Below the pieces are notes generated by a model that made no database searches, was not told the origin of the DNA, and saw only the letters and a program-made list of their open reading frames with translations. Positions 2,956 through 43,339 of a DNA stretch of 43,339 nt are shown here, one piece after another. The position numbers and the translations under genes are program-made. Source of the DNA: a virus; IMG/VR virus record IMGVR_UViG_3300031949_000080, positions 1 to 43,339 of that record. One strand, written 5' to 3'. Each line of letters begins with the position of its first letter. The stretch's first letter is position 1.

Positions 2956-4670
2956 TGGCAATCACTCCAGAACGTTTAGCTCAATTACTAGCTGAAGCTA
3001 GAGCTAAGAAAGCTCAAGTACTAGGCACTCCACAAGAGCCTACAGTAACAGTTATTACTGCAGATGCACCAGTACTCTCTCACCTAACTCACTCTGTAGG
3101 AATGCACGGCGAAGTAATCACATACAACTCTAAACAACAAGAAGCAGTTACTCTAGGAGCTACAGGCAAGAGCTTTGTACTTCTTGGTGCAGCAGGTACA
3201 GGTAAATCTACCTCCCAACGTGGTGTAGTACAAGCTCTTATAACCGCAGGTATGGCAGGTATCATGGCAGATGATGGTCACAAGTACTTACCATCCGGAA
3301 CTCCTGGCGTAGTAGTCTGTGCGTATACTAGACGCGCGGTTAATAACATTCGCAAAGTTATGCCAGCAGATATGAAGAACAACTGTATCACCATTCACAA
3401 ACTTCTCGAATACCAACCAGTGTATTACGAAGAGTACGACGAAGAGCAAGGTAAGGATGTTAAGACTATGCGTTTTGAGGCAACTCGTAACGTAGTTCGA
3501 CCACTGTCTACCTCCATTCGTACTATCATATTTGAGGAATCCTCTATGATATCTACAGAACTATTCTCTGAGGTACTCGGAGCTATTCACCATCCAGTAC
3601 AATTCATATTCATTGGAGATATTCAACAATTACCTCCAGTGTTTGGCTCTGCAGTTCTTGGTTACAAGATGTTAGAGCTTTCAGTAGTAGAGCTTACTGA
3701 AGTTTACCGACAAGCTCTGGAATCTCCGATCATACGTCTTGCACATCACATACTCAGTGGTGTACCTATTACTGCTGAACAGTTACCTGAGTGGGAAGTA
3801 CCTAACAAACTCAAACTCCATCCATGGAAGAAGAAGCTCAGCGTAGATTTAGGTGTTCTCACTATTGCTAAGTTCTTCTCTCAAGCTATAGATACAGGAG
3901 CTTACAATTACGAAGAGGATATGATATTAATTCCCTTTAATAAGAGTTTCGGAACAGATGAAGTAAACAAGTACATCGCACAACACATCACAGCTAAGTC
4001 AGGTGCGCTGGTACATGAGATTATCGCAGGCTTCGACAAACATTACTTCGCTGTAGGTGATAGAGTTATGTATGAGAAAGAGGATGCAACTATCACAGGT
4101 ATCGCAATGAATGCAAGTTTTGTAGGAGCTAAATACCTAGCTGCATCTAATCTTCTAGATCGCTGGGGTAATTATAGGGCAGCCTCAGAAGCCTCTAGCG
4201 AACGCGCTACAAGCCACAAACCTGTAGAGCCAACCGAGGCAGATATAGATGCAATGCTAGATGCTATGAGTTTCTCTGGAGGTGATGATGAAGATAGAAC
4301 CAGACAAGCCTCGCACTCTATTACTCTACGACTGCATGAGTCCGGTGAAGAAGTTACTATAGATTCCGCCGCAGCAGTTAACAAACTAGCTCTAGGTTAT
4401 GCTATCACAGTACATAAAGCGCAAGGTTCTGAGGCTCGCAAAGTGTTTCTAATTCTTCATGAGTCTCATGCTACCATGCTGCAACGAGAGTTATTGTACA
4501 CAGCAGTAACCAGAGCTAGAGAATCACTGTACGTAATCTGCCCACCGGATGCATTTGTTAAAGGAATTACAAGACAGAAGATACTTGGTAATACTATAGC
4601 CGAAAAAGCTAAGTACTTCCAAGGGAAACAAGAGCGTAATGAGATGCAATCTAAACTTGTAACTAACTGA
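2955..4670 (+). CDS. SF1 DNA helicase, RecD/Dda-like
   Basis: Walker A LLGAAGTGKST, Walker B-like IIFEESSMIS, and C-terminal motifs ITVHKAQGSE and LLYTAVTRARESLYV typical of RecD/Dda-type SF1 helicases. Confidence 0.85.
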   Translation: MAITPERLAQLLAEARAKKAQVLGTPQEPTVTVITADAPVLSHLTHSVGMHGEVITYNSKQQEAVTLGATGKSFVLLGAAGTGKSTSQRGVVQALITAGMAGIMADDGHKYLPSGTPGVVVCAYTRRAVNNIRKVMPADMKNNCITIHKLLEYQPVYYEEYDEEQGKDVKTMRFEATRNVVRPLSTSIRTIIFEESSMISTELFSEVLGAIHHPVQFIFIGDIQQLPPVFGSAVLGYKMLELSVVELTEVYRQALESPIIRLAHHILSGVPITAEQLPEWEVPNKLKLHPWKKKLSVDLGVLTIAKFFSQAIDTGAYNYEEDMILIPFNKSFGTDEVNKYIAQHITAKSGALVHEIIAGFDKHYFAVGDRVMYEKEDATITGIAMNASFVGAKYLAASNLLDRWGNYRAASEASSERATSHKPVEPTEADIDAMLDAMSFSGGDDEDRTRQASHSITLRLHESGEEVTIDSAAAVNKLALGYAITVHKAQGSEARKVFLILHESHATMLQRELLYTAVTRARESLYVICPPDAFVKGITRQKILGNTIAEKAKYFQGKQERNEMQSKLVTN

Positions 4671-5480: not shown

Positions 5481-6113
5481 ATGAACGACCAAACAACTGG
5501 CATTAACGTACCTGCTTCTCTCTCTACTTACGCAGAGAAGGAAGTTAAATTCAACTTCCGCAAGAATGCAGAACTCGGAACCAAGCGCCCCAGCGTAGCA
5601 CTTAACCTGAAGTTTCTTACACTCGCTGGTCTGGTAAACATTCTGGAGTCTGGTGATGAGAAGCAAGTTAACCTGATTCTGGAAACTCTGCAAACTCCGG
5701 TGCTGGATCAGGCACGTAACCAAGTAGATGAGAATGAAGCTATCACACAAGAGACTCTGGATAACTCCAAACTGTCTTGGGAATATATCTCTCGTCTGGA
5801 GCCTGCTGCACGTCGCGGTGGCGGCATTCCGAAAGAGACTTGGGAAGCTTATGTGCAGGACTACATCGAAGTTATGCCTGGAGTTACTGGCAAGACTGCG
5901 GAACAAGTTACTCGTGCTGCATCTCTGTTGGGTAACAAGCTCTCCAGCGTCAAGGGTAACAAGCCTGTTCTGTCCTTCTTGCGTGAAGCAATTGATCTGC
6001 ACTTCGCTAGCTCTGCTAAGTCCGAAGAGTTCGTTGATTGTTATGAGTTCTTGAAGAACAAGGCTGATGCACTGTTGCAAGCATCGGATGCAGATTTGCT
6101 GAAGAATCTGTAA
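5481..6113 (+). CDS. Abundant-looking early protein of unknown function (210 aa), a paralogue of 41049..41765
   Basis: It has its own promoter and an SD aAAGGAa. No TTA/CTA/TCA codons occur across 5481-6080 (the codon-aligned antisense frame is open). It shares EQV-x9-KLSS-x(1-4)-KPV and other blocks with the 238-aa protein. Confidence 0.85.
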   Translation: MNDQTTGINVPASLSTYAEKEVKFNFRKNAELGTKRPSVALNLKFLTLAGLVNILESGDEKQVNLILETLQTPVLDQARNQVDENEAITQETLDNSKLSWEYISRLEPAARRGGGIPKETWEAYVQDYIEVMPGVTGKTAEQVTRAASLLGNKLSSVKGNKPVLSFLREAIDLHFASSAKSEEFVDCYEFLKNKADALLQASDADLLKNL

Positions 6114-13340: not shown

Positions 13341-13808
13341 ATGAAACTTTTACTTTTAGTAAGTGCTGACAAGAGAATCTTACTTGATGATACAGACTTA
13401 CAGCTCTTAGGGCACTTATACTGCAGTATATCGCAGACTAACAAACTAATTGTTAGTTGTCCCTTAAAGACTCTTCGTACACAGTATCTACACAGGCTGA
13501 TACTACAACCTCTAGATACTCAAGTGGTAGATCATATTAACGGTAACGGGCTAGATAACCGTAGAATCAATTTACGTATCTGTGAACAACTTCATAATAC
13601 ACAAAATCGTGCACTGAATAAAAATTCCTCTACAGGGTATAAAGGCGTATCACGGCGTACGGCAACAAGTAAGTTTACGGCCTCTATACGGGTAAAAGGT
13701 ACTAAAATTCATTTAGGTAACTTTACCTTTGCAGTTGATGCAGCTAGAGCTTATAATGAAGCAGCTGTTAAATATTTTGGCGACTTTGCTAGACTAAATA
13801 AATTATGA
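13341..13808 (+). CDS. HNH homing endonuclease with a C-terminal AP2 DNA-binding domain
   Basis: HNH core VDHINGNGLDNRRINL...H and AP2-like YKGVSRR...FTASIRVKGTKIHLGNF...AARAYNEAAVKYFG. It is wedged between the SSB and the DNA polymerase. Confidence 0.8.
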   Translation: MKLLLLVSADKRILLDDTDLQLLGHLYCSISQTNKLIVSCPLKTLRTQYLHRLILQPLDTQVVDHINGNGLDNRRINLRICEQLHNTQNRALNKNSSTGYKGVSRRTATSKFTASIRVKGTKIHLGNFTFAVDAARAYNEAAVKYFGDFARLNKL

Positions 13809-29823: not shown

Positions 29824-30159
29824 TTATGGTTTATTAGCTATATGAAACGGAGAGATGTAATCCACTCTATCTCCAAGGTATCTAGCGCGCTCACCTTTCC
29901 AGCCTGTGTCATAATAATGATAACGGAGCCTGCCGCTGATAGTCCACTTGTAAGGCATAATCTCGTGAAACACTAAGATGCCAAATACTGGAGCTAACGT
30001 TATATCTACGATACCAGCTATTATGATGATAGGAGCACAAGGTAAAACTACCCACCAGCGGCGTGCCCTTATTGCGGGCAGTAAACCAGCGTATAACACA
30101 AATCCGATATAAAATACCCAGAGGCTACTAGCTGCAATAGCGAGCGACATTAGTTCCAT
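29824..30159 (-). CDS. Three-TM membrane protein (111 aa) inside the tail gene block
   Basis: GGAGG lies 7 nt upstream. It has three hydrophobic segments followed by a basic/aromatic tail. Confidence 0.6.
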   Translation of the reverse strand: MELMSLAIAASSLWVFYIGFVLYAGLLPAIRARRWWVVLPCAPIIIIAGIVDITLAPVFGILVFHEIMPYKWTISGRLRYHYYDTGWKGERARYLGDRVDYISPFHIANKP

Positions 30160-30659
30160 GTCACTGCCTCCACCTCAGCAGTAGTTATTGCAGAGCGCAC
30201 TTGCTGCTTGCGAGTTTGCAACTGGATGAACGCCGCCTTGCCGCGCGCCAGCATCGCACCGGAGAGGCCCTGGAGTTCGGCGAATGTGACGGCGTGGATT
30301 ACGTTGGCGGCGTCCTGCCAAAAGTCCGGAGCGTAGAGCGCACCACCAGACAGCGACTTTACCAGAACCTGCTGGCTGTACTCATCTGCTTGGAACATCG
30401 CGTCAAGGTATTCGATGTTCGCGTAGATGGTGGCATCGTAGGCGGCTTGCAGTTCGGCAAACTTCTCCGCCTGCGCTGTTGCCAGCGGCTTGACGTACGG
30501 CGTCACAGCGCCGAACTCACCGGAGAGCGCGGCTGCGTACATCTCAGCAGTGGGTGCGTCATCAGGATGCGTTGAGCAGGGTAACCAGCCGCGCTTCGGA
30601 TGGTTGAATTCGAGGTCGATACCGCCGACGTGATTCTGTTTCAGGTTTCTAAGTTCCAT
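30150..30659 (-). CDS. Tail-fibre accessory/chaperone-like protein (DUF4376-like, 169 aa)
   Basis: It lies immediately downstream of the fibre gene with AGGAG upstream. The C-terminal pattern (...TFAELQGL...AAFIQLQTRKQQVRSAITTAEVEAV) resembles DUF4376 as I recall it. It is strongly GC-rich. Confidence 0.5.
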   Translation of the reverse strand: MELRNLKQNHVGGIDLEFNHPKRGWLPCSTHPDDAPTAEMYAAALSGEFGAVTPYVKPLATAQAEKFAELQAAYDATIYANIEYLDAMFQADEYSQQVLVKSLSGGALYAPDFWQDAANVIHAVTFAELQGLSGAMLARGKAAFIQLQTRKQQVRSAITTAEVEAVTWN

Positions 30660-30667
30660 GATTTCTC

Positions 30668-31651
30668 CTATGCGATGCGCTGCGTAACCACTACATGCTC
30701 TGCTGCATCGGCAGGAATAGTCCCTGACACATTACGCCAAGTCCCATTCCGCGCAGTATTTGGGGTAAACCCGCCTGCATTAAGACACACGCTGCTGATC
30801 GAGCTGCCAGCAATCGTATCCCCGGCAGCCCACGCGCCAGATAGGTGGTGGTATGAAAGTGCATAGCACCCAATGTCGGCAACATCAGTATCATTATTCA
30901 CAAAACCCGCCATGCAGTACGCAGTCGTTGCAAGCTGCGTGTTGTTCGTGCCGACCGATTCTGTGTTGCTGGTGCAGTTATCCAGCGCGCCGGATGCCGG
31001 AGTGTTCAGCGCACCGCCGTTGGTAAGGGCGGCAGAAGTAGTTGCACTGGTTGCACTGGTTGCACTGGTCGCCGTATCCGCATTCCCAACCAAATCCCCA
31101 ACAAACCCTGCAGCAGTCAGCGTGTTAGTATTCGCGTTATACGTCAGCCCAGAATCAATAAATGGGAGTTGATTACCCGTAGCCGCGGCACCAACCAGCA
31201 CTACCTGCGTCGTTGTGTCTGTCGATGTCGTTGCGCTGATGTTGATAGAACTTGATGCTACAACAGGATACAGCTGAATCATTCGGAACTGTGTCGCAGT
31301 AATCGCCAGAACCTTAAATATAGTCCCAGCCGCTACAGTTAATGTATCTCCACTAGCAGTACCATCTATCAACAGATTTGCGCCAGCAGTAAACTGCGCA
31401 GCTCCTGCACACACCAGAGTTCTTTCGTGTTGGCCTGCATTGGCAGCTGCCGCAAATCCAGTAGCTACTGCAGTTCCGGTGTAATTAATCGTCAGTGCTG
31501 CCGTAGCGAATATATCTGGAGTAGTAGCGGACGCCACTGTACTAATCGTACTCAACGCAGTCTTCAGTGTTCTGAATTCCGCAGCTGCAGTACTTCTATC
31601 TACAGTATCCAGCGGGTTAGTGATATCATTTGCATCTGCTGTATAAGCCAT
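30668..31651 (-). CDS. Tail fibre / receptor-binding protein (327 aa)
   Basis: Gly/Ala/Thr/Ser-rich with an ATSATSATSATT repeat and an NTQLATTAY collar-like motif common in tail fibres. Its C-terminal two-thirds are GC-rich. Confidence 0.65.
   Translation of the reverse strand: MAYTADANDITNPLDTVDRSTAAAEFRTLKTALSTISTVASATTPDIFATAALTINYTGTAVATGFAAAANAGQHERTLVCAGAAQFTAGANLLIDGTASGDTLTVAAGTIFKVLAITATQFRMIQLYPVVASSSINISATTSTDTTTQVVLVGAAATGNQLPFIDSGLTYNANTNTLTAAGFVGDLVGNADTATSATSATSATTSAALTNGGALNTPASGALDNCTSNTESVGTNNTQLATTAYCMAGFVNNDTDVADIGCYALSYHHLSGAWAAGDTIAGSSISSVCLNAGGFTPNTARNGTWRNVSGTIPADAAEHVVVTQRIA
31041..31067. repeat. Perfect 9-bp tandem repeat (GTTGCACTG)x3 inside the fibre gene
   Basis: Read directly. 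It encodes the (ATS)n stretch on the minus strand. Confidence 0.9.
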
Positions 31652-38328: not shown

Positions 38329-39891
38329 TTAACAGGAACAGTTAGATTCAATTCCTAGTACTTGCGCAGCTCCTAACTCTTGTGAGGCAACTGGCGCCTG
38401 CATTGCAATAAACTGCTCGTACTCAGCTAAAACTCGTGGTGAGTACGTAAGAAGGTCGAGTATCCCATCAGTATTATCTCGTTTCAGAGGCTTAAACTGA
38501 GATATTTGATAATGTACTGCGGTACGAACAGACTCGTGTACGAATATATCACCTGCAAGGTATTCTTTAAACATGTTAAGTATGCGAGTTACCTTAGAGA
38601 GACTACCAGAGTATATTGGTACACACTCAATTCCAATAATTTCTAGTTGGGCTGCGATAAAATTGAACCAGTAGAGAAGCGAGTACTGATATGCGTTAGC
38701 TTCTATCGCTATCAAAGTACAATTATGCGTAAATGCCATTGTAAATGCTGTTCTAATTGTATCTCCTGGACTAAATCTACCTTCTTCTAGGTGCATCAGT
38801 ACTGGTACTGGGCCTTTAGGTCTACCGAAGATTCGGAAATGGCCGATAGATACTGCATCACTGTTCTGTTTATCATTAGATGGATCAATGATGATGTAAT
38901 CACCTAGAGATAACTCAGCATCATCGAATGGGTACTCTGGAAGCTTAGCTAAATCTATGTTAGTGTTAGCGTTTGCGTTCTCATCATTGAGTACTTCAGC
39001 GTAAAATATCTCTGGGTGACCAGAATTCAAGTCCGCTTGAAACTCTTCCATAAGCTGTTCTATAGGCTGTAACTCTTCCCACAAAGATTCACCGTTAGAA
39101 AGTATTCCACCTACAATGAACTTAGTCCAACTCGGATTCGCTTTTAACTTACGAAGTATGCTCCATTTAGTAGGATACATATTAGCAACAAATATGTATA
39201 AGCAGCCAGACGGGGACTTAGCTTTCATAGCTGTACCTATCATCCACTGTTCGATGGATTCGGAAACAGTTTGGCTGTCTGCTTCTTCGCGAGTTTGTAT
39301 GTCCTCGAATATCATTAAGTCTGGCCGCTCGTTATCTCGGTTAGTTCCGCGAACTGCGCCACCCTTACCGATAGCTTCTAACATTATAGTACGCCCACGA
39401 TAACCGAACACTTTAAAGGCTTGAGTGTCAGTAGTAACTCCAATGTGATAATCACCGAATACTGAGAGAATGTTAGAGTTCGCTAGCATGGTACATACAT
39501 CGGTAATGATATTAATTGCGTGCTTCTCTGTCGCAGATATTACCATGATATAACGACGGGAAGTAAATAAAATACAATAGATGATGAAGAATTTGATAAA
39601 TGTAGTTTTACCGAAACCGCGAGGTAGTCCGAGAGCTAGTTTAGAGAAATCGCGAGGCTTGTGGATAAAGGATAGTAACCAGTTCCAGGCAGCAATGAAT
39701 ACTGGAGGGAATAAGTACTTAACCATAGTTGGTGCAGCTAACGCAGCCAGGAAATCTAGTGAGGATTTAGCTGCCTCATGAACTTGAGCGTGCTCGTAAT
39801 TAGCAGAACTCAGCTGCTCCTCTGGCTCAGCAGTCTGGCCAGTATCTGTAATTCCTAATTGTTCTTCGAGATTAGTAGGTAAATGAGGCAT
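38329..39891 (-). CDS. terL: Terminase large subunit
   Basis: Walker A GLPRGFGKTTF, Walker B DLMIFEDIQ and a C-terminal nuclease-sized domain. Confidence 0.85.
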   Translation of the reverse strand: MPHLPTNLEEQLGITDTGQTAEPEEQLSSANYEHAQVHEAAKSSLDFLAALAAPTMVKYLFPPVFIAAWNWLLSFIHKPRDFSKLALGLPRGFGKTTFIKFFIIYCILFTSRRYIMVISATEKHAINIITDVCTMLANSNILSVFGDYHIGVTTDTQAFKVFGYRGRTIMLEAIGKGGAVRGTNRDNERPDLMIFEDIQTREEADSQTVSESIEQWMIGTAMKAKSPSGCLYIFVANMYPTKWSILRKLKANPSWTKFIVGGILSNGESLWEELQPIEQLMEEFQADLNSGHPEIFYAEVLNDENANANTNIDLAKLPEYPFDDAELSLGDYIIIDPSNDKQNSDAVSIGHFRIFGRPKGPVPVLMHLEEGRFSPGDTIRTAFTMAFTHNCTLIAIEANAYQYSLLYWFNFIAAQLEIIGIECVPIYSGSLSKVTRILNMFKEYLAGDIFVHESVRTAVHYQISQFKPLKRDNTDGILDLLTYSPRVLAEYEQFIAMQAPVASQELGAAQVLGIESNCSC

Positions 39892-40018: not shown

Positions 40019-40621
40019 TTAACCTCTACTTGCGACAATGTCTGCGCTAATACTTGTGGCTGAGTCTGTGAGTTGTTCATTTGACGAGTTCCTAGAGGGG
40101 AGTGTTGCGAGTTTAGACTTCAGGGTTTTAGTTTCAATTGTTATTAATTCTTGCTCACCAGCTTCTATCACTTGATTGTTAATATTAGTTACAAATCGTG
40201 AGGTAATTGCTGCAGGTAACGTGAGCTGTACTATCGTGTTATGAACAACAGTGTTGTCTGGAGCATCGGCGCCCCTGCGTTTAGCAGCGTTGATTACTGT
40301 AATAGCGCGAAGCACTTCCATAGGTTTGTACATCATTGGAAGCAAGTCTTTCATCTTCGCTATTAGTGCATCTTCAATACTATCGTAATCGCGATCTCTG
40401 GTAGTTGCAGCCTGAAGATTAGCAAACCGTTTAGCTGTAACTTGTGCGGAAAATTGCTCCTCCCCAAGAAGCTGGGAGATGTAACTTTCGCTTATTCCTA
40501 ACGCTGAGGAAACTACTACTGGAGCTAAACCATTACCTAACATTTCCAGCGCGCGACCAGCTGTACCTTCGTAAATCTTAATGTTACTGTCTGTGTTAAC
40601 TACTATTGGATTTGCGGCCAT
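40019..40621 (-). CDS. terS: Terminase small subunit candidate (200 aa, N-terminal HTH LGISESYISQLL)
   Basis: It is the first gene of the late operon, directly upstream of terL, and has an HTH-like segment. Confidence 0.5.
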   Translation of the reverse strand: MAANPIVVNTDSNIKIYEGTAGRALEMLGNGLAPVVVSSALGISESYISQLLGEEQFSAQVTAKRFANLQAATTRDRDYDSIEDALIAKMKDLLPMMYKPMEVLRAITVINAAKRRGADAPDNTVVHNTIVQLTLPAAITSRFVTNINNQVIEAGEQELITIETKTLKSKLATLPSRNSSNEQLTDSATSISADIVASRG

Positions 40622-40662
40622 GATTGAGTACTCCGAGAGGTTTACTAAACTAATTATAACTT

Positions 40663-40691
40663 ATTATATGTTGTTAGTTACTAAGATGCAA
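40663..40691 (-). promoter_or_regulatory. Consensus-like sigma70 promoter for the late (-) operon: TTGCAT - 17 nt - TATAAT
   Basis: The minus strand reads TTGCATcttagtaactaacaacaTATAAT, with the -10 about 42 nt upstream of the terS ATG. Confidence 0.7.
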
Positions 40692-40822
40692 CAGGGGATG
40701 CTTGAAAAAGTTTAGGAAATTGTGGAGATTGTCATAGGTATAGGAAGCACCTCAGACCAAAAAAGGGTCGCTACCCCCTCCGGCAGTGAGTGAGTACTTA
40801 CTGCAATGATTGGCGCAGGTAG

Positions 40823-40905
40823 TGACAATAATTGTCAGTGAGTTAGTTGTTAGTAATTAGGGAGTTACAAGGGAAGTGACAATAATTGGTAGTAGAGGTG
40901 ACAAT
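40823..40905. promoter_or_regulatory. Operator-like sites: a perfect 15-bp palindrome TGACAATAATTGTCA plus two further GTGACAAT(A/T)... copies
   Basis: 40823-40837 is TGACAATAATTGTCA (7-1-7). 40877-40889 is TGACAATAATTGG. 40899-40905 is TGACAAT. All lie in the divergent intergenic region. Confidence 0.6.
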
Positions 40906-40976
40906 TTGCGGCAGTCAAGAATCATTATTGCAGGTTATAATGTAGTGTAATCAATGAGTTAGCAGTGAGCGCGGCT

Positions 40977-40992
40977 TGGCATGAGTATTGCT
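40977..40992 (+). promoter_or_regulatory. Sigma54-type -24/-12 promoter candidate TGGCATGAGTATTGCT
   Basis: Matches TGGCACG-N4-TTGCW at every fixed position but one, with the canonical GG-N10-GC spacing. It lies 57 nt upstream of the 41049 ATG on the correct strand. Confidence 0.45.
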
Positions 40993-41006
40993 TCCTATAA
41001 GGGTAG

Positions 41007-41025
41007 GTGTAGCATCTCGCTACAC
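41007..41025 (+). promoter_or_regulatory. 7-bp perfect inverted repeat GTGTAGC-atctc-GCTACAC in the leader of the 238-aa gene
   Basis: Read directly. It is flanked by further imperfect symmetry (cctataag...cttatatagg). Confidence 0.5.
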
Positions 41026-41048
41026 TCTTATATAGGAGTTACGACATC

Positions 41049-41765
41049 ATGGAAACAACAACCAACAATCTGAGCAACAACAACCAACTGCCCGCTAGCA
41101 CCTTGGCACCAGTGCTGCACTCTGCTGCCTTTGTTCCGATGGACAGCATCAAGGGCAAGAGCGTAAGCAGTGGTAATCGCTGGTGCAAGCTAATCAAGAA
41201 GGGGGAAAACTCCAAGCTTGGCATGAGCCTCGCAGTGGAAGTGCCAGAGATTACAGGCTTGGCAGATTACAGCCAATACCCTGCAATCACAGCGTACTTG
41301 ATTGACGCGCTGCATGGCCTGCAAGCGGAAGCAGTGAAACAGCGGGCGATTGCAGGTGATAAGGTGTTGCAGTTCTCCGCACTGTCTGTTGCCAACCTTG
41401 AAGCCGTAGCAGTAGCTATCAACGAATCCAGCGGTATCGGACAACTCTCTGAAGAGCGTATCAAGAGTTGGTTCGATGCAGATGCGCGGGAGCTGGTACT
41501 GGTCGCACTGGCTGACAGGCTTGGTATTAGCGAGTCTGCTACTGAGGGAGACATCAAGCGCATTGAGCAGGTAGCTAATCAGATGCGTGATAACTTGGCT
41601 AAACTGTCCAGCCGTAAGCCTGTGCAATTTGATGAACGAGTTAAGAAGGCACTTAACATGGCGCTGGATGCAAGCGATACAGGTGACAACATGACTGGTC
41701 GCTTGAGGGAAAAACTGAATCAGACAGTTGGTGCAGATGACATGCTGATGAATTTGGGACTGTAA
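41049..41765 (+). CDS. Early protein of unknown function (238 aa), a paralogue of 5481..6113, ending ...DDMLMNLGL
   Basis: SD TAGGAG. It is GC-richer and codon-optimised (no TTA/CTA/TCA codons from 41190 on; antisense ORF open) and shares blocks with the 210-aa protein. Confidence 0.85.
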   Translation: METTTNNLSNNNQLPASTLAPVLHSAAFVPMDSIKGKSVSSGNRWCKLIKKGENSKLGMSLAVEVPEITGLADYSQYPAITAYLIDALHGLQAEAVKQRAIAGDKVLQFSALSVANLEAVAVAINESSGIGQLSEERIKSWFDADARELVLVALADRLGISESATEGDIKRIEQVANQMRDNLAKLSSRKPVQFDERVKKALNMALDASDTGDNMTGRLREKLNQTVGADDMLMNLGL

Positions 41766-41782
41766 GGCTAGCAGATAGTTCC

Positions 41783-41817
41783 TAACTTGCGCATTGTATA
41801 TCACAGTGTGCAAGTTA
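41783..41817 (+). terminator. Hairpin after the 238-aa gene (TAACTTGCGCA ... TGTGCAAGTTA, one G-U)
   Basis: An 11-bp stem with a 13-nt loop, 18 nt after the stop. No U-tract. Confidence 0.4.
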
Positions 41818-41834
41818 ATGAACTAACAATGAAT

Positions 41835-41929
41835 CCCCCATATAACTGGAATATCCGGCATAACTGACATACCTCACATATACAGGATACCTCACATACC
41901 TCACATATCCACATATCACGTGAGGTATG
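41835..41929. repeat. Left iteron array (IR-L): CCCCCATATA...(ATACCTCACATA)x3...CATATCAC plus a local 10-bp hairpin CATACCTCAC/GTGAGGTATG
   Basis: Read directly. It is the reverse-complement partner of 42171-42246. Confidence 0.85.
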
Positions 41930-42170
41930 CGGGAAATCCGACCCCTTTTTCGGGTTTGGTTAGTTAGCAACTAGTCAGGGTACAAACAGGTAAGTTAGTA
42001 GTTATGTATAGCAGTAGTTGGTAACTAGGGGGTATGATGTATTTTGAAAATTTATTGACGGCCTAAAAGTTACACTAAGAGAATTATGTCAGATATTACA
42101 GGTCTTGGGCATGAGTAGTTGGTAAACAGGAAAGACTGAAAAAGAGGGGTAAATTACAGTGAGGGGTGGG

Positions 42171-42246
42171 GTGATATGAAGATATATGGGGTATGTGAGG
42201 TATACTGGGTATACTGGGTATGTCAGGTATATGAGATATATGGGGG
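42171..42246. repeat. Right iteron array (IR-R): GTGATATG...TATGTGAGGTAT, (GGGTATACT)x2, GGTATGTCAGGTAT...TATATGGGGG
   Basis: Its reverse complement begins CCCCCATATA and ends CATATCAC like IR-L, and shares the CTGACATACC and ATACCTCACATA blocks. It has ~9-bp periodicity. Confidence 0.85.
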
Positions 42247-42256
42247 ACTGAAATAA
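42176..42256 (+). CDS. Possible 26-aa leader ORF (MKIYGVCEVYWVYWVCQVYEIYGGLK) encoded by IR-R and stop-start coupled (TAATG) to the SprT-like gene
   Basis: The ATG at 42176 follows gaGGGGtGGGGtgat. Its TAA at 42254-42256 shares an A with the ATG at 42256. A mirror 37-aa frame exists on the minus strand of IR-L (41801..41914). Confidence 0.25.
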   Translation: MKIYGVCEVYWVYWVCQVYEIYGGLK

Positions 42257-42687
42257 TGCTTAATAGTTATGACGCAGAACAATACATTCTAGCTACCAGT
42301 TCAGCTATATGGAAAATAGCTAGAATGTATTATGAAGAGTTGCCAGAACAGCCACCTAAAATTGTGTGCAGTTCTGAAGCAACAAAGTATGCGGGAGTGG
42401 CATACTTTAATCTAACTAAAGGGATTAAGTATAATCTAGCCTTTATATGTTCTATGGAGAATCATACAGAATTCGATAGAACAATTGCACACGAATTAGC
42501 ACATGTAATACAGTTTAGGTTATACCCTAGAGCTAAACAAGCTCACGGCCCAGAGTTTAGAGCTATTATGTTGGTGTTAGGGTATAATGGTAGTACGTAT
42601 CACAGTTATAGTGTTAGTAAAGCAAAGAGTATAGCAAAGAGTTTACAGCAGGATGATCTGCTAAAAGAGTTAGGAATAGATTTATAG
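42256..42687 (+). CDS. SprT-like zinc metallopeptidase (143 aa) ending ...DDLLKELGIDL
   Basis: HExxH (TIAHELAHVIQF) with downstream HGPEF, and an SprT-like N-terminal YAGVAYF... Confidence 0.65.
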   Translation: MLNSYDAEQYILATSSAIWKIARMYYEELPEQPPKIVCSSEATKYAGVAYFNLTKGIKYNLAFICSMENHTEFDRTIAHELAHVIQFRLYPRAKQAHGPEFRAIMLVLGYNGSTYHSYSVSKAKSIAKSLQQDDLLKELGIDL

Positions 42688-42717
42688 TCAGAGTAACTAA
42701 TAGAGATGGAGACAATC

Positions 42718-42858
42718 ATGGTTAAAAGATTTCGCATATTTACTTCCGTATATCAGTATCATAGCTGGTTACGGGGTATTGACAGGAGACTGGTACAGGT
42801 GTACAGTGTGGTAAAATGGGATAACTTGAGGATTGAAGTAAGTTATTGGGAGGTATAG
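42718..42858 (+). CDS. Hypothetical small protein (46 aa), below the track cut-off
   Basis: GGAGA lies 7 nt upstream of the ATG at 42718. The frame is open to the TAG at 42856-42858. Confidence 0.35.
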   Translation: MVKRFRIFTSVYQYHSWLRGIDRRLVQVYSVVKWDNLRIEVSYWEV

Positions 42859-42991
42859 CCAAAGGCTACTGCATCATCTTCAGCACTGCTGTTTATCACT
42901 ATTGCGTGGCAGATTAATAACTGGCAAATGTGAGAAAGTCTGCACTGTGTAGTACACTATGTAGCATGATATGCTGTGACAGAGTGTATCA

Positions 42992-43009
42992 TGATGCAAT
43001 GTTGCATCA
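42992..43009. promoter_or_regulatory. Perfect 18-bp palindrome TGATGCAA-TG-TTGCATCA upstream of the Ala-repeat gene
   Basis: Read directly, 24 nt upstream of the ATG at 43033. It contains a TTGCAT hexamer. Confidence 0.55.
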
Positions 43010-43032
43010 CCCTAAAAGAAAGGTCAGTAATC

Positions 43033-43339
43033 ATGGAATCAGTAATCATGAAGGGGAAACACAAAGTAACAGTTACAATAGCAGATATTGTAGCTGCTAA
43101 ACCATGTAGCGATGAGTGGAAAGACAGGCTGCCTGCTGATATGGATGCAGCAAAATTTTTGGTACCTGTCAATGTGTTAGATATATACAAATCTCATGGT
43201 ATGAAAGACATGCTTTGGTGTTTAACTAAAACAGGTAATAAACAGTTATGCGTAGCTATAGCTATAGCTTTCGCTGAGGATGTATTGAATATATTTGAGA
43301 GTAAGTACCCTTCAGACACTAGACCGAGAAAAGCTATAG
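43033..43339 (+). CDS. 5' part of the junction-spanning Ala-repeat protein gene (continues at base 128 of the window; 43213-43339 duplicates 1-127)
   Basis: The ATG at 43033 is preceded by aaAGGTcagtaatc. The frame is open to the window end and in phase with frame 1 at the window start. It encodes MESVIMKGKHKVTVTIADIVAAKPCSDEWKDRL.... Confidence 0.7.
   Translation, partial: MESVIMKGKHKVTVTIADIVAAKPCSDEWKDRLPADMDAAKFLVPVNVLDIYKSHGMKDMLWCLTKTGNKQLCVAIAIAFAEDVLNIFESKYPSDTRPRKAI

Follow-up and report, generated by a model that had tools for sequence, protein, structure and literature searches.

A putative mirror-symmetric control module with a conserved centre and fast-evolving arms in podoviruses related to the Fredfastierviridae

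The viral DNA record IMGVR_UViG_3300031949_000080 of IMG/VR (analysed over its whole length of 43,339 nt, hereafter the window) contains, directly downstream of the early gene p238, a non-coding module made of two inverted arrays of short tandem units, the arms IR-L and IR-R, which bracket a core of about 250 nt. This putative cis-acting control module is a hallmark of a large group of podoviruses of 41-47 kb related to the Fredfastierviridae (PaMx41/PaP2/119X). On the evidence of sequence comparison, the safest statement would be that it is a conserved and symmetric control module, probably recognised by a protein, in which the inner elements are conserved and the outer arms evolve fast.

Architecture of the module and its occurrence in relatives

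The module occupies a 490-nt non-coding gap between the p238 gene and a SprT-like gene (Table 1). A repeat search recovered there an inverted repeat of 69 nt (41851-41919 / 42171-42239) that is 77% complementary and has 251 nt between its two halves. With an ungapped scanner, the segments 41860-41919 and 42171-42230 (80% identity) reached a score of 30, as compared to 13 for the next unrelated inverted repeat of the genome and a maximum of 14 in 20 whole-genome mononucleotide shuffles. The arm pair is the strongest inverted repeat of the genome and is present in one copy only. Each arm is built from 8-9 copies of a 9-bp unit, nRGGTATRY, and the autocorrelation at lag 9 amounts to 0.49 in IR-L and 0.57 in IR-R, values that were reached by none of 2000 shuffles. 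The mirror symmetry extends past the arrays, to outer edges of the ATCCCCC/GGGGGA type and to inner edges formed by GACCCCTTTTT and AAAAAGAGGGGT, and the left arm takes part in a perfect 10-bp local hairpin between CATACCTCAC (41895-41904) and GTGAGGTATG (41920-41929). A first-pass annotation of the window, made from the sequence alone, had already described the two inverted arrays around a 251-bp non-coding core, this hairpin and a phasing of about 9 bp in IR-R, all of which are borne out, the phasing in both arms. We also concur with its remark that the annotated genes leave the structure unexplained.

The core contains a direct repeat, AGTAGTTGGTAA, at 42013 and 42114, which the same annotation had reported, and three copies of AGTAGTT in 246 nt, where 0.09 would be expected. 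Its conserved centre can be aligned across the window and six related loci (L001, L033, L037, L041, L217 and L218) and, in the alignments, the relatives display AGTTA-type motifs, TAGGGGGTAT and an AT-rich block. This block comprises about 25 nt in the window, with an AT content of 84%, and none of the 30-nt segments sampled in the region attains 80%. The -35-like box TTGACG noted in the first-pass annotation is indeed found at 42055, but the promoter match that it would open (TTGACG-18-GAGAAT, 42055-42084) scores 9/12, not above shuffles, against a sigma-70 consensus that may not be that of the host.

Close relatives were located through p238, the terminase small subunit and p344, a protein encoded next to the module, and IMG/VR was scanned with an alignment of the helicase of the group. 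This database holds at least 185 stretches with the primase/helicase of the family and at least 90 with its helicase. The helicase scan yielded 80 loci, many of them on contigs of 41-47 kb, and a mirror pair of arms was found 2.2-5 kb upstream of the helicase in about 45 loci with enough upstream DNA. The spacer measures 205-440 nt in these relatives, and the units, of 7-12 bp, are repeated 3-9 times. Layout and map position are shared by L001, L002, L033, L037, L039, L041, L054, L217 and L218 and by about 40 of the helicase loci, and in about 50 related podovirus contigs of 41-47 kb the module sits between a p238-like early gene and the next early genes. Among cultured phages, the homologous gap of PaMx41/TF17 has a core of about 230 nt flanked by arms of the CAAGGT type, and Polaromonas phage Tiera shows ATGTTCG-type arms; TAGACCGC/TAGACTGT and AATGCCAG are frequent unit types among the helicase loci.

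Whatever the unit, the two arms mirror each other position by position, variants of the unit included, and many relatives have one extra inverted unit at an arm edge, as in composite sites made of a dimer and an array. The outer-edge motif ATCCCCC recurs in L001, L002, L033 and L037, the left inner boundary GACCCCTTTTT is conserved in L001, L002, L033 and L091, and equivalents of the right inner boundary AAAAAGAGGGGT occur in L001 and L033. Thus mirror symmetry, spacing, the C-run/G-run boundaries, the central motif cluster and the AT-rich block are conserved, whereas the sequence of the arms is not. The comparison of relatives that the first-pass annotation had suggested (conserved periodicity with a non-conserved peptide, or the reverse) gave a repeat layout at the same position in dozens of them and no conservation of the peptide, the periodicity itself varying between 7 and 12 bp.

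Table 1. Features of the module and its surroundings in the window, and arm units of related loci
Feature	Position	Strand	Remarks
p238 gene	41049-41765	+	conserved early gene, always directly upstream of the module
Hairpin TAACTTGCGCATTGT / ACAGTGTGCAAGTTA	41783-41817	+	after the p238 stop codon; from the repeat search; kept in L217 at 3600-3633
37-aa open frame	41801-41914	-	lies over IR-L; judged a by-product of the repeat
Outer boundary motif ATCCCCC	41833-41839	unstranded	mirror partner GGGGGA at 42242-42247
Left arm, IR-L	41835-41919	unstranded	about 9 tandem 9-bp units RYATACCnn
Inverted unit GTGAGGTATG	41920-41929	unstranded	abuts IR-L; 10-bp dyad with 41895-41904
Core	41930-42170	unstranded	about 250 nt, non-coding, alignable between relatives
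Inner boundary GACCCCTTTTT	41940-41950	unstranded	C-run then T-run; mirror partner at 42139-42150
Conserved centre	41997-42061	unstranded	AGTAGTT/TAGTTAC-type motifs, TAGGGGGTAT, AT-rich block ATGATGTATTTTGAAAATTTATTGA, TTGACG
Inner boundary AAAAAGAGGGGT	42139-42150	unstranded	A-run then G-run; mirror partner at 41940-41950
Right arm, IR-R	42171-42247	unstranded	8 tandem 9-bp units nRGGTATRY, GGGGGA at the end
26-aa open frame	42176-42256	+	within IR-R; overlaps the start of the SprT-like gene (TAATG); regarded as a by-product of the repeat
SprT-like gene	42256-42687	+	Pfam SprT-like, E 2.6e-10; first gene after the module in the window
p50 gene	42706-42858	+	small, fast-evolving; within 0.5 kb downstream of IR-R in the window clade
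Arm unit of L001			AAACTTC; period 10 bp
Arm unit of L002			TTATC; period 9 bp
Arm unit of L033			ATATTTC
Arm unit of L037			CATTAT
Arm unit of L039			ATACAGAC
Arm unit of L218			TGTTTTC

Turnover of the arms and the proteins that may read them

The replacement of the arms can be followed at close range in L217, a 43,121-bp Logan contig whose large terminase subunit (TerL), p344 and helicase are 88-89% identical to those of the window. Its arms form a 47-nt inverted repeat that is unrelated to that of the window and essentially non-repetitive; the flanking hairpin and the centre of the core are kept. This comparison indicates that mirror symmetry and spacing are under selection, and that unit sequence, period and tandem repetition are not. 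Moreover, a constant layout together with a repeat that changes from phage to phage points to a control site recognised by a protein, the specificity of which would evolve fast.

This turnover also bears on the status of the small open reading frames (ORFs) over the arms. The 26-aa frame had been presented in the first-pass annotation as a leader coupled to the SprT-like gene, and the 37-aa frame as its mirror on the other strand. Both frames are open and the TAATG overlap is real, but the peptide is not conserved and, as the arm sequence is replaced between relatives, neither frame can be a gene. An inverted duplication of a small-peptide gene, which had been proposed as the source of the arms, finds no support either, because arm sequence and peptide are replaced even in close relatives and the frame of L001 contains a stop. 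A leader peptide acting through translational coupling is likewise unsupported, given that peptide sequence, downstream gene and overlap are all unconserved between relatives. Annotators should not call small ORFs inside such arrays genes.

Two conserved proteins were considered as readers of the arms and rejected, as their putative DNA-binding segments stay constant while the arms change. The helix-turn-helix (HTH) of the terminase small subunit, GNGLAPxVVSSALGVSESYISQLL, is invariant in five phages with different arms, and the C-terminal winged-helix-like segment (SNLRAAEKIQQ) of the DUF3987 primase/helicase is conserved in the window and three close relatives, among which L139, from the L001 phage, has an arm unit known to be unrelated. 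Neither protein would therefore read the variable part of the arms; either of them could read the conserved boundary or centre motifs. Pfam searches with about 30 early ORFs detected no DNA-binding domain other than that of an HNH_3+AP2 ORF resembling homing endonucleases.

On the other hand, genes adjoining the module co-vary with the arms. When protein identity was regressed on the sharing of arm 6-mers, with helicase identity controlled for, p344, which has the highest partial association, and ORF family 12 came out at the top. For p344, the AlphaFold2 (AF2) model (pLDDT 78.5) has no PDB fold match (best E 0.19), and the profile matches no PDB sequence. In most of the wider family, outside the window clade, the gene that comes first after the right arm belongs to family 12 (about 125 aa), and it is this wider family that the test of family 12 against the arms covers. 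In its N-terminal motif, K[FY]RP[YVS][FL]T, the variants RPV/RPS accompany TGCCA units (10/10), and RPY accompanies units of the GAC[TC] type. Among pairs matched for a helicase identity of 55-70%, the unit class is shared by all 26 with the same residue and by 9 of the 70 with different residues. The AF2 model of family 12 (pLDDT 83) consists of an extended N-terminus followed by helices at residues 12-25 and 29-43, and the predicted order of an extended N-terminus and two helices suggests a ribbon-helix-helix (RHH) protein.

In the window clade, homologs of p50 lie directly after IR-R in L217, L033 and L037, and near IR-R in L001. The identity of p50 between the window and L217 is 48%, as compared to the 88-89% of the core proteins, and a search for p50 homologs returned only the protein of the window itself. 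By its position and fast evolution, p50 would be the candidate arm-binding protein of this clade.

Possible functions of the module

The explanation that we favour, tentatively, is that the arms are type-specific sites for a small phage protein which would clamp a conserved core containing an early promoter and/or an origin. This DNA-binding protein, different between phage types, would be encoded just downstream of the module, as family 12 in most relatives and possibly as p50 in the window clade. Its protomers would occupy the short contiguous units side by side in both arms and, with the arms facing each other, the protein-DNA assemblies formed on them could pair and so clamp or loop the core. 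The core would in turn be read by conserved factors and be the start point for the downstream early/replication block, either as a promoter, as an origin or as a transcription-activated origin. Such a pairing of arm and protein would act as a specificity determinant of an immunity or incompatibility-like kind. The more ambitious proposal, that the arms and the co-varying small protein make up an unrecognised type-specificity (immunity/incompatibility) switch clamping the early promoter/origin of the family, is unlikely.

Contiguous subsites of 7-11 bp are the usual targets of RHH proteins such as MetJ, omega, ParR and CopG, and the contiguous tandem units of the module, with a period of 9 bp (7-12 in relatives), fit this type of array. 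In parC of plasmid R1, two arrays flank a promoter-containing core, and the small binding protein (ParR or omega) is encoded beside the site. R1 parC/ParR and the omega heptads of pSM19035 resemble the module in their contiguous 7-11-bp units and in a specificity that differs between close relatives. However, the arms of the module are mirror-oriented and separated by about 250 bp, compared with about 40 bp in R1 parC, no gene for a partition nucleoside triphosphatase was found, and the RHH fold suggested for the neighbouring protein has no fold match. The immunity regions of temperate phages, such as immI of P22 with its RHH repressors Arc and Mnt, also combine a diversifying cis site with a gene for a small DNA-binding protein (a predicted one in the present case), but here there is no integrase or classical repressor, and the arrays are far larger than ordinary operators.

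Several observations weigh against the clamping of the core by a type-specific protein. Tandem repetition is dispensable in L217, which is unusual for proteins that bind arrays cooperatively. No convincing conserved sigma-70 promoter was found in the core. Phylogeny confounds the correlation between family 12 and the arms, as does linkage, with 0.05-1.2 kb between gene and arm, and PDB searches by sequence and by fold matched family 12 to no DNA-binding family. In the window clade family 12 is missing and p50 occupies the equivalent position, the two being not detectably related in an hhalign comparison (probability 0.2). Finally, L038/L051 (IMGVR_UViG_3300031669_007248) lacks the whole module at this position. 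The first 140 nt of L038, which comes from the same sample as L037, run from the p238 stop through a hairpin and a palindrome, GATGCAATGTTGCATC, to the next gene; as the contig ends 60 nt later, a variant, a deletion and a mis-join are indistinguishable.

A bidirectional origin, in which an initiator/helicase assembly would be nucleated at each arm, the two in opposite orientation, and the AT-rich centre would melt, is possible, if somewhat unlikely. It would account for inverted arrays around a conserved centre with an AT-rich block and repeated motifs, and for a non-coding gap (420-540 bp) that is large for a compact genome. Downstream lies the early/replication block, which encodes the SprT-like protein, a Dda-like helicase, a PD-(D/E)XK exonuclease, a Sak4-like ATPase, a family A polymerase (PolA) and the DUF3987 primase/helicase, whose homolog is annotated as ORC2/Cdc6-like by HHpred in the PaMx41 record. 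Inverted sites are used by initiators of the superfamily 3 type (SV40 large T, papillomavirus E1) and in archaeal origin recognition box (ORB) elements, and the origins of Staphylococcus aureus pathogenicity islands (SaPIs) have two sets of iterons around an AT-rich region; pairs of origin and initiator diversify in specificity in lambdoid phages, iteron plasmids and SaPIs. Like all these origins, the module has an AT-rich centre with a set of short repeats on either side. Its mirror symmetry would be explained by orientation-dependent loading, as in SV40/papillomavirus and ORB, and the specificity of such origins co-evolves with the element, as proposed here. Nevertheless, the spacing of the module is larger, and no initiator was found whose DNA-binding domain varies together with the arms: DUF3987, the only initiator-like protein compared, keeps its winged-helix-like segment constant between phages with unrelated arms, and p344, which adjoins the module, is without a recognisable fold. 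Besides, the AT-rich block is short, with the length and composition given above. The origin with phased initiator iterons of the first-pass annotation is still tenable, in view of arrays that look protein-binding around a conserved centre; the constancy of DUF3987 and a 9-bp phasing that is not obligatory do not favour it.

The same annotation had also put forward the physical genome ends or a packaging region. The core would then be, or contain, a terminal repeat or cut site, and the arms would position the terminase symmetrically at the concatemer junction, which we consider decidedly unlikely. The module is found 1.2-1.6 kb upstream of the point at which the terminase small subunit gene starts. 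The GenBank entries for PaP2, 119X and the PaMx phages open midway through the homologous core, but 119X was numbered after PaP2, so that these shared starts are not independent, and the records of PaP2, 119X and PaMx41 have no terminal repeat. Six contig ends fall in the core (L091/L052, L127, L114, L117 and L002): the 43.5-kb contig L091/L052 begins and ends just inside the left arm, L127, L114 and L117 start at the inner C/G runs (L114 and L117 at the right G-run), and L002 ends in the core. Against this stand some 20 full-length contigs that break at unrelated places, and the breaks of the partial contigs at C/G homopolymers of 8-9 nt, which are able by themselves to break assemblies. The starts in question (L091 1-60, L127 1-30, L114 1-50 and L117 1-20) coincide with runs of 8-9 C or G at the inner edges of the module, and may be either a weak spot of sequencing or a real DNA end; L091 opens with an odd CCCCCCCCGGGGCCCCCC string. 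Cohesive (cos) ends were rejected as unlikely, since full-length contigs do not break at the module, and a terminal repeat equal to the core is still conceivable. The invariant HTH of the terminase small subunit in phages with different arms argues against the packaging reading.

Phage Shea is reported to be terminally redundant by PhageTerm (PMC13348215), which was counted in favour of a terminus. In the core of Tiera (L022, OQ067478.1) there is a perfect 72-bp tandem duplication at 43928-44071, which may be the untrimmed k-1 overlap of a re-opened record whose original contig ended there. Inverted GGGCAGT arrays straddle the boundary of the 606-bp direct terminal repeat (DTR, from PhageTerm) of Caulobacter phage Kuura (L028), where they lie at 43046-43075 and 43219-43248 with a 10-bp period and the right DTR copy starts at about 43206; Kuura is distant, however, with a TerL identity of 23%. 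Short-repeat arrays also adjoin the terminal repeat of T7. Both T7 (SRL/SRR) and Kuura are thus like the module in having short-repeat arrays next to a few hundred bp of non-coding DNA in the vicinity of podovirus packaging genes, but the CCTAAAG repeats of T7 are direct, in a single orientation, and are also found inside the terminal repeat, whereas the arms of the module are inverted. The abstract of the PaMx41 genome paper (AEM 2016) reportedly describes the genome as 'linear, terminally redundant'.

An effect at the RNA level, by which the arms would pair in a read-through transcript and thereby control how the downstream gene is translated, whether or not the 26-aa leader ORF takes part, is barely credible. 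The plus-strand RNA of 41825-42260 is predicted to fold into a long stem (-142.9 kcal/mol, z -5.7) that takes in the GGGGGA lying nine nt upstream of the SprT start codon, but such a fold is automatic for any inverted repeat. The mismatches of 41 arm pairs comprise 63 and 49 of the wobble type (for the two strands) versus 122 non-wobble ones, with no strand bias, and this lack of a G-U bias favours a constraint on DNA over one on RNA. Furthermore, relatives do not agree in the downstream gene, in how far away it lies or in its ribosome site, the peptide is unconserved, and 40500-43339 has no Rfam match at E up to 1. The long-range RNA pairing that the first-pass annotation had imagined to hide the SprT ribosome site is not supported by these results. 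It is also very improbable that the module has no function, as a decaying insertion similar to a miniature inverted-repeat transposable element (MITE) or as a self-propagating quasi-palindrome kept symmetric by template switching. The absence of the module from L038 and the fast drift of the arms would be in line with this, but its boundaries and centre are conserved, and a single copy per genome, a fixed map position from the window to PaMx41 and Tiera (TerL 31-33% identical) and the lack of a flanking target-site duplication exclude a MITE.

Genomic setting and implications

The ends of the window are identical over 126 nt (1-126 = 43214-43339), an assembly overlap that implies a circular map of 43,213 bp and is uninformative about the physical genome ends. 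On this map, plus-strand genes from 41049 round to about 18.7 kb make up the early and replication regions, and minus-strand genes (19053-40621) the structural one, with TerL at 38329-39891 and the terminase small subunit (40019-40621) as the last gene. The TerL of the window is 31-35% identical to those of the Pseudomonas phages PaMx41/PaP2/119X (Fredfastierviridae), Aeromonas phage P5 and Tiera, and the gene order is common to all of them. A DNA search of 41000-43339 against GenBank phages gave no match, and the only match in a scan of genome contigs for host assignment was a metagenome-assembled genome, 'bacterium isolate nzgw467', which is itself the phage.

Upstream of the module, homologs of p238 (40-77% identity) occupy the same position in L001-L004, L033, L037 and L217, and p238 corresponds to ORF family 3, present in 36 of 41 loci; it has no Pfam, PHROG or PDB match (the latter searched by profile), and tblastn against phages found none either. 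The hairpin after its stop codon lacks a T-run, and no terminator was called there; it might be where the upstream transcript ends or is processed. Downstream, the first gene varies, being SprT-like in the window and in Tiera, and p50 or p54 in others. The SprT-like gene is absent from this side of the module in L001, L033, L037 and L217, whereas in Tiera it does follow the module (Tiera_053, L022 42972-43391, with an HExxH...HGxEF motif of the SprT-like kind).

Other features of the genome were recorded in passing. The product of an early gene that runs from 43034-43339 on to 127-609 has an N-terminal domain and then alanine-rich (AAxAAx) repeats with N/D/Y over about 140 residues. A gene with such repeats lies at the equivalent place in L001 (7697-8248), L054/L077, L066 and L217 (5393-5998), and several contigs, including L066 and L077, break within the repeats, the break of the window lying just upstream of them. 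The perfect palindrome GATGCAATGTTGCATC is located upstream of this gene at 42993-43008 and is identical, at the same place, in L001 and L038, whereas L037 has GATGTAATGTTGCATGTTGC, which differs from it slightly; the palindrome resembles an operator or promoter element that is distinct from the arrays. Dyads of the GTGACAATAATTGTCA type occupy the gap between the divergent genes for the terminase small subunit and p238, at 40822-40837, 40876-40889 and 40898-40910, and the motif is kept in L001 (about 5750-5800). These dyads probably serve the divergent promoters as a conventional set of operators and have nothing to do with the hypervariable arms. The ORF at 13341-13808, immediately upstream of the DNA polymerase gene and with matches to HNH_3 and AP2 that both fall under the Pfam cut-offs, is likely a homing endonuclease. 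The G+C content is 55% in a single 1-kb window (30001-31000) and 40-49% across the remaining genome.

No description of the module was found in the searchable literature, a coverage that leaves out the PaMx41 genome paper, and the origin, termini and early regulation of the group are undescribed in the same literature. The group includes the Pseudomonas aeruginosa phages PaMx41 and PaP2, which are models for defence systems and candidates for therapy, and the module is the obvious place to look for these three functions. The arms could also be exchanged between phage types, which would amount to a natural swap experiment. In phage Shea the plaques are turbid, and both superinfection resistance and an episomal carrier state occur (PMC13348215). 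A type-specificity switch, if true, would account for the pseudolysogenic carrier state and for the resistance to superinfection reported for the Pseudomonas members of the group (PaP2/Shea), although any link between the module and pseudolysogeny is speculation. In any case, if the arms set the specificity of each phage type, they would offer a handle for engineering these phages, for predicting cross-immunity in cocktails and for understanding pseudolysogeny.

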